In this document: one piece after another, positions 16,122 to 19,193 of the stretch
How the letters are laid out: each line of letters starts with the position of its first letter
Position numbering within the stretch: position 1 is the first letter of the stretch
Position numbers and translations under genes: made by a program
IMG/VR virus record: IMGVR_UViG_3300042837_000031
Source of the DNA: a virus
Length of the DNA stretch: 20,865 nt
Direction: 5' to 3' (one strand)
The notes under the pieces: generated by a model
Database searches by the model: none
Seen by the model: only the letters and a program-made list of their open reading frames with translations
Told to the model about the DNA's origin: nothing

Positions 16122-17432
16122 CTATGTACCCGGGTCGTACGCAATGCGGCGGATGCCGGGGTTGTCGATGACCTCCACGACGCGATAGCCCCAGATGGCC
16201 AACTCCACAGAGCGGACCTGCCACTGGAACTCAAGCCGCTGCGGCGCGCTGGCCGCGGCGTAGATCGCGGCCGGATCGAACAGGTAGCTGTTCGATGACG
16301 CGTTGCTAGGAGCGGCCGCCGAGGTGACCGGGTAGCCCTCCAGGCCAGCAATGGACAGCCGAGCAAACCGCGGCGAGACCTGGCCGTTTGCGTTGACCGG
16401 GCCGAACATCGGGTAGAGCTTCCGGCCGCTGGTGTCAGTCGCACGAGCGAACAGACGGTAGAGGTCCTGCTGGAGCGCCAGCGACGTGAAGCTGTTGCCC
16501 GTTGCCACGTACTGGAGATCAGCGACAGCGGCCTCAAACGCGGCCGAGACCGGGTAGTCCTGAGCCTGGGTGTAGGTGGCTGGCCAGGTGCCCGCGTTCG
16601 TCGGAAGCGTGATGGTCGCACCAGGAGACTCAGCCTCAAGCTCAGTCCACGCGATGGCCTCCAGGGCCTTGTTGTACTCGTAGACCATCTTCTGCCAGAT
16701 CAGCGAAGACGCCTGAGCGCCACCCTGATCCCATAGCTCGCGAGAGATACGCACCTTGCCGGACACAGCGCCCGGGGTGATCGTCTCGCTAGTCGCCGTG
16801 AACTGACCCTCAGCGGGCTCAGTGTCCTCCACGTGAGCCGCGACCAGAGCCGAATGGGCAGACCACTTCGGGACAACCATCGGCGTGATCTCCGACAGGG
16901 TTTCCTTCTGGATCGCCGTCCACAGCGGGAACGCGAATTCACGCTGAGTGACGTAGAGGTCCGGCCGCTGGACGTTGGGATTCAGCGCGGCCACGTTGGC
17001 AACCGGGATGATCGCGAATTGCTCGCCTTGATCATCGGCGGTCGTGCGCACGGGACCGTCCGGCACGCTGGTGATGGGAGCGGTAAACACGTGCTCCTGG
17101 ATGAAGCCCAGCGCGCGGGCACTGGCCGCGCCGTCGCCCTGAGAGGCAGCGCGAAGATCAGCCGCAAAGTCGTGAGTCCCGGCCACCAGGTTGCCGCGAT
17201 CGAAGCGGTACGGCTCCGGCTCGTGGACCTCAAGAGTGACACCCGGGGTGCCAGTAGCGCCCTCAGCCGGGTTGATCACCTCAGGGCCAGCAGCTCCAGC
17301 GGGTGCCTGCGGGTTGGCCGCGAGGTACGCCTGGAACGCCTGGGCGAACTGACCCATGTCGAATTGCGGCGCGGGCGTGCAGGCTGCCTGCCCAGCGGTG
17401 TGAACGTGTCCGCAGACAGCGCACGGTTCCAT
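16122..17432 (-). CDS. Nested in-frame capsid-only product (436 aa) from an internal start
   Basis: Within the fusion ORF, AAGGAG-AAATC-ATG (ATG at 17432-17430) lies in frame at codon 588, exactly at the protease/capsid boundary. The internal start is inferred, not proven. Confidence 0.45.
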   Translation of the reverse strand: MEPCAVCGHVHTAGQAACTPAPQFDMGQFAQAFQAYLAANPQAPAGAAGPEVINPAEGATGTPGVTLEVHEPEPYRFDRGNLVAGTHDFAADLRAASQGDGAASARALGFIQEHVFTAPITSVPDGPVRTTADDQGEQFAIIPVANVAALNPNVQRPDLYVTQREFAFPLWTAIQKETLSEITPMVVPKWSAHSALVAAHVEDTEPAEGQFTATSETITPGAVSGKVRISRELWDQGGAQASSLIWQKMVYEYNKALEAIAWTELEAESPGATITLPTNAGTWPATYTQAQDYPVSAAFEAAVADLQYVATGNSFTSLALQQDLYRLFARATDTSGRKLYPMFGPVNANGQVSPRFARLSIAGLEGYPVTSAAAPSNASSNSYLFDPAAIYAAASAPQRLEFQWQVRSVELAIWGYRVVEVIDNPGIRRIAYDPGT

Positions 17433-19193
17433 GATTTCTCCTTGGTTGTCAGCCTCAGCCACCACGGCAGAGACGCGAGCTGAATCAAACGCTGGCGATG
17501 GGGTCAGGGAGACCTCAGCCAGGATGTTGCCTTGCCCGGAGTGCCAGACCCCGGAACGTTCGGAAAATTGGGCGTCGTCCAGGAGACCGATAGAGAGCCC
17601 GTCATAGACGCCATCCTCAGCCAGCACCAGGGCGCGATCGCCCTCTGGAGTGCGGGCCACCTTGAACGTCACCCGGAGACCGTCAGGGCCATCCTCGAAC
17701 GTCACGCCGCGGCCCACGGCCTGCGAGCGGTCATGCTGGATCAGGAGCTTCACGCGGCTGGGCTCGGCCCAGGTGAGCGACCCCTGAGAGAACTGGTACG
17801 TACGGCCGTTGCGGCGGGCGGTCACACCGTACGGGACAGCCAGGCCCGTGATGGTCCGCGCGGCCTGGTCAACCGCAAAGATGTTGCGTGATTCTGGGGT
17901 CTCAAAGCCAATAAGAAGTGAGCCGGCGTCAAAGTTATTGCGCGAGCTCGGGGCTTCCGCCGCAACATCATTGCTTGACTCTTGATCTTGACCAGCAGGG
18001 AGAGCCGGGCGCGGCATCGCGAACGTGGGCGCGGGCAGCCCCTCGCGCTCGGCCACGGCATTGCGGTCGTAGATCCCCATTGCGATTCCCAACTGATAGA
18101 CCTGGAAGCGAGAAAGATCATCCGCCCTCAGGAAGCCGTTAAAGTCCGCGAGGATGCGATAGCCGCGCGGCGTGACATCAGGCATGCTGAGCCGCTCCTG
18201 GATCGCGGAGACGTACATCCCGATTGATTCATTGATCTTGGAAATGCGCCGGTCCTGGCTGTTCTGGTAGGTCCGGCTAGTGGTGCTGACGCCCAGGTCC
18301 TCAGGGTCGATACCCAGCACGCGGCCGATTTCCACCACGGCGGCCGAGCGGGCCGCGTCAAGCTGGAGCTTTTCCGGGTCCCACTGGAGTGTCTTGTAAT
18401 CCAGGGCTCCCGGGACATAGGCGTCAGCGCGGGACTGGCGAGCCTTGGTCCAATCGTCCAGGAACTCCGGGACGTCATCCTCATCCGGGTCAGCCTCAGG
18501 CTTAGGCGTGAAGTAGCCCTGTGGGAGTGGGCTGTCCGCGTAGCGATCGGCCGCCGCGGAGAGCTTCAGATAGGTGCGGATCGCACGAGCGCCAGCGTCC
18601 AGGATGCCATCGGTGGGCGAGTCGAACTGGATGTAATCCTTGGGCGGGACCTTGACCTCATCGCCGTTGGGCATATTCACGTGCAGGTAGCCCTCAGCGT
18701 CCACCTGAGAGCCGGGGTCCACGCGCCACACATAGGCGGGGTAATTCCTGTAATCCCGCTCGCGGGTCCACCAGTAGGCGATCCCCTCGAACAGGAGATC
18801 CTCGACCAGGCGTGTCATGGTGATGGATCGGGCGCGGTTCCGCTCGGGCTGGGTGAGTAGCGAGCTGACGTGCTCCACGTTCTCCGTGTCCACGAGACGG
18901 AAGGGAATTCCACCCACCTCGCCAGCTATCAGGTCGCGGCCGCGTTTGACAGCCGGGACCTGGATAGCCTCACGGCGCGGCACTTTGGGAGCCGGGCCCG
19001 TGGTCGTTTGGTAGGACTCCAGGCCAAATATCTGAGCGGGGATCGAGCCCGCGTCGATCTCGAACCGGGGGGCGGTCGGAGAGTCGGGACGTTCAAAGCC
19101 AAGCCACTCAGCTATCCGCCACCAGAACGACACGCGATGAACAGTAGCGTGCTCTCCCCACAATGATGTTGCGTTACGCGCCGCGCGCCACAA
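16122..19193 (-). CDS. Portal - prohead protease - major capsid protein triple fusion polyprotein (1023 aa)
   Basis: An uninterrupted ORF with three segments.
- Residues 1 to about 400 are HK97-type portal-like (AVKRGRDLIAGEVGGIPF, SITMTRLVEDLLFEGIAYWW, TYQNSQDRRISKINESIG).
- Residues about 435-575 are HK97/S78 protease-like (ITGLAVPYG, VKLLIQHDRSQAVGR, VYDGLSIGL, AEVSLTPSPAF).
- Residues about 700-1023 are HK97-fold capsid-like (LYVTQREFAFPLWTAI, VSGKVRISRELWDQ, MVYEYNKALEAIAW).

The start is uncertain. TTG 19193 overlaps the terminase; GTG 19133 is an alternative. Confidence 0.8.
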   Translation of the reverse strand: MWRAARNATSLWGEHATVHRVSFWWRIAEWLGFERPDSPTAPRFEIDAGSIPAQIFGLESYQTTTGPAPKVPRREAIQVPAVKRGRDLIAGEVGGIPFRLVDTENVEHVSSLLTQPERNRARSITMTRLVEDLLFEGIAYWWTRERDYRNYPAYVWRVDPGSQVDAEGYLHVNMPNGDEVKVPPKDYIQFDSPTDGILDAGARAIRTYLKLSAAADRYADSPLPQGYFTPKPEADPDEDDVPEFLDDWTKARQSRADAYVPGALDYKTLQWDPEKLQLDAARSAAVVEIGRVLGIDPEDLGVSTTSRTYQNSQDRRISKINESIGMYVSAIQERLSMPDVTPRGYRILADFNGFLRADDLSRFQVYQLGIAMGIYDRNAVAEREGLPAPTFAMPRPALPAGQDQESSNDVAAEAPSSRNNFDAGSLLIGFETPESRNIFAVDQAARTITGLAVPYGVTARRNGRTYQFSQGSLTWAEPSRVKLLIQHDRSQAVGRGVTFEDGPDGLRVTFKVARTPEGDRALVLAEDGVYDGLSIGLLDDAQFSERSGVWHSGQGNILAEVSLTPSPAFDSARVSAVVAEADNQGEIMEPCAVCGHVHTAGQAACTPAPQFDMGQFAQAFQAYLAANPQAPAGAAGPEVINPAEGATGTPGVTLEVHEPEPYRFDRGNLVAGTHDFAADLRAASQGDGAASARALGFIQEHVFTAPITSVPDGPVRTTADDQGEQFAIIPVANVAALNPNVQRPDLYVTQREFAFPLWTAIQKETLSEITPMVVPKWSAHSALVAAHVEDTEPAEGQFTATSETITPGAVSGKVRISRELWDQGGAQASSLIWQKMVYEYNKALEAIAWTELEAESPGATITLPTNAGTWPATYTQAQDYPVSAAFEAAVADLQYVATGNSFTSLALQQDLYRLFARATDTSGRKLYPMFGPVNANGQVSPRFARLSIAGLEGYPVTSAAAPSNASSNSYLFDPAAIYAAASAPQRLEFQWQVRSVELAIWGYRVVEVIDNPGIRRIAYDPGT

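Follow-up and report, generated by a model that had tools for sequence, protein, structure and literature searches.

A single gene for portal, protease, scaffold, and capsid protein with a conserved internal start signal in small actinobacterial siphoviruses

How can a tailed phage obtain portal and capsid protein in unequal amounts when both are encoded in one gene? The question is raised by a 20,865-nt stretch of viral DNA (IMG/VR record IMGVR_UViG_3300042837_000031; hereafter the window, whose coordinates are used throughout), in which a single stop-free reading frame on the minus strand, 16122..19193 (stop codon 16122-16124), encodes a portal, a prohead protease, a scaffold-like spacer, and an HK97-fold capsid protein. 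The original prediction, made from the letters alone, described this frame as a triple fusion with an internal Shine–Dalgarno (SD) sequence and ATG, and proposed that the full-length product supplies the portal and the internal start the free capsid subunits. Our analysis makes it virtually certain that the fused gene is real and conserved, and very probable that the internal start is functional. A model in which a small actinobacterial siphovirus makes two products from one self-processing head gene is, in our judgment, a probable account of how the gene works. Amino acid (aa) positions are counted from the first TTG of the frame (1023 codons in the open reading frame, ORF, listing) unless stated otherwise.

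Domain content of the frame and its relatives

Profile searches place all three protein families along the frame. Pfam Phage_portal (PF04860) matches aa 80-385 (E=7e-28; 98.1 bits against a cut-off of 39.1), Peptidase_S78 (PF04586) aa 445-582 (31.6 bits against 21), and Phage_capsid_4 (PF25209) aa 754-1005 (31.3 bits against 27); PF05065 does not reach its cut-off in the same scan of the ORF product. Among the PHROG profiles, PHROG 12 (portal) covers aa 38-387, PHROG 80 the protease module (E=5.7e-15), and PHROG 2263—a protease–capsid fusion family annotated "major head protein"—aligns aa 439-1019 with positions 32-543 of its 551 (E=7e-44). A sequence-profile search of the PDB recovered the portal module alone (3kdr, E=1.5e-24), with no match for the protease or the capsid.

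An AlphaFold2 monomer model built on 44 homologues (mean predicted local distance difference test score, pLDDT, 70.9) contains three folded modules with two disordered linkers between them. The portal (about aa 70-390) and the protease (aa 440-573) are modeled confidently, at a pLDDT of about 90 in each module, and an HK97-like module spans about aa 660-1020; disorder is predicted at aa 392-436 (pLDDT <50) and at aa 574-611, the latter segment holding Met588 and being followed by a helix at aa 613-626. Foldseek searches of the PDB matched the portal part to 3kdr (template-modeling score, TM, 0.77) and to the HK97 portals 8cez and 8fql, and the capsid part to the HK97 capsid proteins 8fqk, 1ohg, and 2fs3 (E about 5e-9, TM 0.5-0.6). 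No protease structure appears among the top 50 Foldseek matches to the full model, so the protease call rests on the Pfam and PHROG matches together with invariant residues. Two such residues, already singled out in the original prediction within LLIQHDRS and DGLSIGL, are His487 (LLIQH; 17733-17735) and Ser534 (DGLS; 17592-17594), which are invariant across the 44 homologues and which we take to be the catalytic pair by analogy with the His/Ser pair of HK97 gp4. They belong to a set of ~60 invariant residues spread over all three modules.

The portal, protease, and capsid identities of the ORF are confirmed. Read along the minus strand, the gene comprises an HK97-family portal module (aa ~70-390; 18024..18986), a disordered linker rich in Ala, Pro, and Thr (aa ~391-416; 17946..18023), an S78/HK97 gp4-like prohead serine protease (aa ~417-573; 17475..17945), a scaffold-like spacer resembling a delta domain, mostly disordered with the one helix (aa 588-655; 17229..17432), and the HK97-fold major capsid protein (aa ~656-1023; 16125..17228).

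Related genomes bear out the one-ORF reading. A protein search returned >800 matches, of which the best 120 were examined for length and coverage; 118 of these measure 912-1058 aa, with alignments that in nearly every case span 92-98% of the query at 39-95% identity. Some homologues carry the label "phage portal protein" in genomes of Nocardioides, Kribbella, Micromonospora, and Pseudonocardia. We then classified the frames of 156 loci (the window, 75 GTDB genome loci, and 80 IMG/VR loci). All three modules lie in one stop-free ORF at 121 of the 156 (111 nonredundant; 44 from GTDB), with identities of 35-100%, in IMG/VR contigs and in actinobacterial genomes; the GTDB hosts are Nocardioides, Kribbella, Micromonospora, Actinoplanes, Amycolatopsis, and Salinispora. 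Locus L076, on a different contig and 100% identical, and L077, a 20,825-bp genome at 95% identity, share the fused frame of the window.

The other loci divide the same modules differently. At 21 of the 156, a separate portal gene precedes a protease–scaffold–capsid gene, and in L041 (9586-12971) and L047 (1716-3899) portal and protease are fused and scaffold–capsid is a separate gene. L074 is pseudogenized, and the remaining loci are truncated at contig ends. The protease of L041 and L047 is linked to the portal only, suggesting that a tether to the portal suffices for its delivery. On this comparative evidence, the triple fusion is genuine and under selection, and the fused and split layouts are functionally interchangeable.

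The internal start at the protease/scaffold border

The sequence AAGGAGAAATCATG at 17430-17443 (minus strand) reads AAGGAG AAATC ATG: as the original prediction had seen directly in the letters, an SD (17438..17443; duplex ΔG −8.3) stands 5 nt before an in-frame ATG at 17432, codon 588. Initiation there would give a nested ORF, 16122..17432, coterminal with the long one and encoding a 436-aa scaffold–capsid product. Met588 had been assigned to the protease/capsid boundary. It does lie on a module border, but the border is that between the protease and the scaffold-like spacer; the HK97 fold starts near aa 660.

Across relatives, the start codon is kept within a variable linker: in a protein alignment, Met588 is retained in 86 of 119 sequences and replaced by Val in another 10. 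For an unbiased view, we scanned all 5568 in-frame ATG/GTG codons of the 111 nonredundant fused ORFs, scoring the anti-SD pairing of the 15 nt upstream at a threshold of ΔG ≤ −7 kcal/mol. The scan has a sharp peak at query aa 580-589, present at 95 of the 111 loci. Elsewhere, most 10-aa bins hold ≤10 loci and secondary peaks hold 13-32, the largest lying at aa 410-419 (32 loci) and aa 370-379 (27 loci). We discarded the peak at aa 370-379 as a coding coincidence, since it falls on a conserved portal K-[DE]-M-G stretch at inconsistent positions. At 11 of the 16 exceptions to the main peak, the signal lies 14-26 codons past Arg573 and had been misbinned or fell barely under the threshold; after rebinning, 106 of the 111 fused loci carry an internal SD and start.

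What is conserved is the nucleotide sequence. At nearly all loci, GGAGG, AAGGA, or AGGAG stands 4-12 nt ahead of the in-frame ATG/GTG at the border, and the residues encoded by this upstream SD differ among loci (K-E, E-G, G-G, and R-K-D). Amino acids that vary over nucleotides that are kept are the mark of selection on the nucleotide sequence rather than on the protein. The mRNA around the internal start is also predicted to be less structured (−15.8 kcal/mol in a 60-nt window vs −20.3 kcal/mol elsewhere in the same genes, p=8.5e-13). By these measures, the internal SD and start are the best-conserved nucleotide feature of the gene, consistent with the role as an initiation signal originally proposed for them.

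The signal extends beyond the fused genes. It is present in all 21 split-portal relatives, and two isolated phages carry the same unannotated in-frame SD and ATG at residue 160 of proteins annotated "major capsid and protease fusion": Arthrobacter phage Elkhorn (gene 7, L156; NRKEATM) and Curtobacterium phage Penoan (L158; ARKELRM). In Gordonia phage Emperor, no internal SD and ATG were seen at the protease/scaffold border; its gene has a hydrophobic N-terminal extension, plus an SD and ATG ahead of the protease. In L041 and L047, scaffold–capsid is in a different frame from portal–protease and starts at an SD and ATG on the same border. Given this frame shift, the border start must be used in those genomes, and we regard the two loci as the strongest evidence that the internal start is used.

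Immediately after the internal Met lies a CxxC...H...C motif (CAVCGHVHTAGQAAC), found at 51 of 100 related loci. In the window it has the form CxxC-G-x-x-H-x6-C, resembling a zinc knuckle (C591, C594, H598, and C605; 17379..17423). Its general form is CxxC-G-x-x-H-x(4-7)-C, poorly modeled by AlphaFold2, and in L079-L083 the spacing is exactly C-X2-C-X4-H-X4-C, like that of retroviral zinc knuckles. The N-terminus of the scaffold–capsid product is possibly zinc-binding.

The long product, in turn, probably begins downstream of the first TTG, and the length of 1023 codons given in the original prediction needs revision. The GTG at codon 21 (19131..19133) opens VSFWWRIAEWLGF, in line with relatives whose N-termini read MGFWW.../MSFWW..., and the gene call for a 95%-identical homologue (P0001, 1002 aa) agrees with this start. 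The most likely start is therefore GTG 19133, with a product of 1003 aa in which the internal Met is residue 568. The terminase large subunit gene directly upstream (19174..20727, minus strand; PHROG 9, E=1.7e-61) ends in a TAA stop 40 nt ahead of this GTG; the long TTG-initiated ORF overlaps the end of the terminase gene. GTG 19133 has no well-spaced SD, GGGGAGAG lying 19-26 nt upstream. Among the fused loci, the N-terminal SD has a median ΔG of −5.3 if the strongest candidate of several is used and −2.5 if the first one is, vs −9.5 at the internal start, where the codon is ATG in 89%. The weak N-terminal SD is as predicted by a scheme of low portal and high capsid supply, and agrees with the earlier suggestion that the full-length product would furnish the few portal copies.

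Origin of the fusion and the two-product model

The split relatives suggest how the frames were joined. In all 21, the stop codon of the portal gene and the start codon of the protease gene share nucleotides, as ATGA or ATGNNTGA, so that an indel of 3n+1 nt fuses the two frames. One of them, L159 (from an NCBI assembly; 90% identical), has a 403-aa portal and a separate 616-aa protease–capsid protein (P0006) whose genes overlap by 11 nt. Relative to L159, the window and L077 have a 7-nt deletion right at this gene overlap, within the portal/protease linker, which removes the protease gene's own GAGGAGGA...ATG start. L084 (87% identical) is split as well, with another junction. An ancestral layout of portal followed by protease–scaffold–capsid would have become fused through a small frameshifting indel at the stop/start overlap.

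The fused junctions vary in what they retain. An in-frame SD with GTG or ATG near query aa 417 persists at 32 of 111 fused loci (about 30%; for example, L001, L014, L036, and L139), which could possibly make a third nested product, protease–scaffold–capsid. At 51 of the 111, including the window and its whole subclade, the linker holds no SD and start of any kind, which implies that the protease is made there only as a portal fusion. A conserved recoding signal that would yield a portal-only product at this junction, for which no search was made, is unlikely because the linker varies greatly in length and sequence. Two motifs considered as cleavage sites, TFD (aa 421) and FxVD (aa 439), were rejected: they stand just after the protease gene's own start in split relatives and so belong to the protease N-terminus. 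Apparent larger fusions (ORFs of ≥1400 aa at some loci) were likewise dismissed, the extra N-terminal 390 aa in L053 and L134 being an Arg/Gly-rich alternative-frame read-through of the upstream gene; no terminase fused in frame was found at the loci with such ORFs.

In the model that we favor, the weak start at GTG 19133 would yield a scarce 1003-aa polyprotein of portal, linker, protease, spacer, and capsid, which would be the sole source of portal and protease in this phage; profile scans of the window's ORFs found no second portal, protease, or capsid gene. The strong internal SD and ATG 17432 would yield the 436-aa scaffold–capsid protein in large excess, as the difference in SD strength and the reduced RNA structure described above suggest from sequence. 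In HK97-type heads, the portal C-termini (crown) and the capsid N-terminal scaffold segments both point into the capsid interior. Since the portal C-terminus faces the interior, the fusion would carry the protease inside the procapsid, where it would cut the linkers and the scaffold and so release mature portal and capsid protein. We infer this self-processing because the protease is intact and has a disordered linker on either side.

Several points weigh against this model. We infer the two products, their ratio, and all cleavages; linker conservation yields no cleavage-site motif; and the model presupposes that 12 portal-linked protease copies per procapsid suffice. In the window alone, AAGGAGN5ATG occurs once where chance predicts 0.11 matches, and a match arises in 10 of 100 shuffles; because this is not significant, the case for the internal start rests on conservation across relatives. 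Within that case, the preference for GGA (82% of Gly codons in the four codons before the internal start vs 5.8% in the background) is partly circular, since the loci were picked for having an SD. Five fused loci (L003, L004, L005, L097, and L109) lack an internal SD and start at the border, so the scheme is not universal. Their spacer is short (53-63 aa), and four of them keep an SD and GTG in the portal/protease linker, so that every capsid subunit there may carry a protease. Finally, the count of at least nine changes between fused and split states comes from a neighbor-joining tree of the protease–capsid part, a rough method.

A more ambitious explanation, also raised in the original prediction, makes the fusion itself an assembly device: the 12 chains of the portal ring would hold on to their capsid domains by way of protease and scaffold, and these domains would nucleate the shell around the ring. 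On this view, the fusion would be adaptive rather than merely tolerated, guaranteeing each head a single portal and a set dose of 12 proteases, with tethers that cleavage dissolves, and it would offer a covalent answer to the old puzzle of the single portal vertex in tailed phages. The topology is compatible, portal C-termini and capsid scaffold domains both being interior; the linkers are long and disordered (32-131 aa between portal and protease and 53-141 aa in the spacer across loci); the fused state persists in large clades down to about 35-40% identity; and the independent protease start is gone from half of the fused loci, which makes the full-length chain obligatory there. Yet the portal is unlinked at the 21 split loci, including the close relatives L084 and L159 (87-90% identical), the capsid is unlinked from portal–protease in L041 and L047, and 12-fold and 5-fold symmetries are mismatched. 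The frequent switches between fused and split states imply that a tether is not required for assembly in this lineage. Because close relatives show every partition, no covalent link is indispensable, which argues against an essential nucleating tether, and we consider this explanation unlikely.

Three further explanations were weighed. The internal SD and ATG might go unused, all capsid protein arising by proteolysis of the polyprotein with surplus portal and protease degraded, and the motif being a pause site or a coding constraint. Intragenic SD-like motifs can indeed cause pausing, and the pattern in the window alone is not significant; but 1:1 synthesis of portal and capsid would waste >95% of the portal, an in-frame ATG/GTG invariably follows the motif at a distance of 4-12 nt, its nucleotides are kept while the upstream amino acids vary, and the same signal is the only possible scaffold–capsid start in L041 and L047. 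The CxxC...H...C motif right after the Met in about half of the products suggests a true N-terminus, and nested starts at the matching position are documented in lambda, the herpesvirus HSV-1, and HFTV1. These points leave an unused start very improbable. Only slightly less improbable is that the family consists mainly of defective or domesticated elements or tail-less satellites, the fusion reflecting decay or satellite streamlining: L160 of Nocardioides piscis has restriction–modification genes where tail genes would be expected, and L074 is pseudogenized, but the window, a complete circular genome of 20.8 kb, encodes terminase, tape measure, tail genes, PrimPol, and helicase, full head–tail modules are present in the three other prophages inspected, and all three modules of the gene are strongly conserved. 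That a junction indel error in sequencing or assembly merged genes that are truly separate, as they are in L084 and L159, is scarcely credible. The fused frame recurs in L076, L077, and >100 loci from other samples and isolate genomes, and what sets the window apart from L159 is an indel of 7 nt in nonrepetitive sequence with loss of the protease SD and ATG, not a homopolymer slip.

Genome context and comparison with known systems

The window carries an exact 26-bp direct repeat at 1-26 and 20840-20865, and this terminal overlap identifies it as a complete circular assembly of 20,839 bp. Besides the head gene and the terminase, it encodes a tape measure, tail genes, a PrimPol (2558-3586), a helicase-like AAA_25 protein (1379-2539), and a lipoprotein with two Ltp repeats, of the superinfection-exclusion type (401-1159), the last three on the minus strand. 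A 334-aa protein with a Laminin_G_3/concanavalin-like domain (14653-15657, minus strand), encoded between the capsid gene and the head–tail connector genes, may be a head decoration or fiber protein. An endonuclease/exonuclease/phosphatase-family protein follows the tail genes (4890-6086, minus strand) and is also present in the Kribbella prophage L161. A scan of 19 other larger ORFs of the window revealed no integrase. Three related prophages are complete elements of 15-18 kb in which the fused gene is accompanied by an integrase, a helicase, a terminase, and tail genes. In L160 (Nocardioides piscis CP049866.1 41240-64041), a ~10-kb element combines the fused gene with genes for a serine recombinase, an HTH_17 protein, a D5_N primase, and a putative terminase. 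After the fused gene come those for Vsr, a DNA methylase, and an MvaI/BcnI restriction enzyme, with no head–tail or tail genes. We read the element as a prophage in decay or else as something satellite-like that lacks a tail.

The whole head module of a tailed phage—portal, protease, scaffold, and capsid—is contained here in one gene; if the two-product model holds, a nested start sets the product ratio. To our knowledge, no more compact head-module layout has been described. The layout is common, occurring in >100 uncultured phages and prophages of soil actinomycetes, and databases label the fused gene just "portal protein" or "prohead protease." Relatives with every partition form a natural experiment on how linkage relates to portal incorporation, protease encapsidation, and protease dose, and cultured lysogens (Kribbella, Micromonospora, Nocardioides, and Salinispora) make experiments feasible. 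There is also a point of annotation: the conserved internal scaffold–capsid start is missing from the GenBank records inspected for known Arthrobacter and Curtobacterium protease–capsid fusions.

Protease–scaffold–capsid fusions are described as a common feature of small siphoviruses of actinobacteria (PMC7302621, PMC5513430). The gene described here is homologous to those that we compared, from Arthrobacter clusters AN/AX/FE, Microbacterium EE, Gordonia CW/DM, and Rhodococcus RRH1 (the PHROG 2263 match given above; 28-34% identity by tblastn), and shares with them the gene order terminase, portal, protease–scaffold–capsid and a siphovirus genome in the range of 14-21 kb. Unlike in those phages, the portal here is covalently joined upstream, with no stop between. 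Isolated-phage matches comprise 222 records: in all 40 listed, the portal is annotated as a separate gene, and none among the records with similarity (222; 40 listed) reaches ≥80% query coverage. A nucleotide search against isolated phages gave no match. The best structural matches in BFVD are protease–capsid fusions of about 500 aa, and no protein among the top 50 matched portal, protease, and capsid modules together. In a literature search that left most subscription journals outside, we found no published description of a portal fused to protease–capsid, or of an internal start in the actinophage fusions.

Against HK97, whose gp3 portal, gp4 protease, and gp5 capsid protein represent the same three families in the same order, the difference lies in three separate genes rather than one. 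As with the gp5 delta domain, the capsid protein here has its own N-terminal scaffold-like segment; this spacer is shorter than the delta domain, and the prediction gives it a single helix within mainly disordered sequence. A precedent for extending the portal is offered by the portal–MuF fusions of Microbacterium EA3/EA5/EA8 and EB and Arthrobacter AK (PMC7302621, PMC5513430), in which a C-terminal extension of the portal likewise carries another internal head protein in one gene. Their partner is a MuF-like minor head protein, not a protease or capsid protein, and no nested start is described there. By analogy, the portal extension would place the protease in the procapsid, as those fusions presumably do with MuF.

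For the nested start, the closest parallels in gene layout are lambda C/Nu3, HSV-1 UL26/UL26.5, and HFTV1 gp17/gp17.5, in each of which a long product contains the protease and an internal in-frame start provides a C-terminal assembly protein in excess; the HFTV1 pair is supported by ribosome profiling and liquid chromatography–tandem mass spectrometry (preprint 10.64898/2026.09.13.751334). The likeness is one of layout. In those systems, the nested product is scaffold only and capsid protein and portal are separate genes, whereas here it would comprise scaffold and capsid protein, and the long product includes the portal. Retroviral Gag and Gag-Pol offer a looser analogy: abundant structural and rare enzyme-containing products are colinear, and an embedded protease resolves the precursor. 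Structural protein and protease likewise share one reading frame here; unlike in retroviruses, the ratio would be set by internal initiation rather than by frameshifting or readthrough, the protein families are unrelated, and processing is a proposed step. The originally claimed new solution to capsid stoichiometry therefore stands in part: the nested start is shared with the split relatives, with Elkhorn and Penoan, and in layout with lambda, HSV-1, and HFTV1, and the portal fusion is new. The new element is apparently the portal fusion, added to an expression logic inherited from known relatives.

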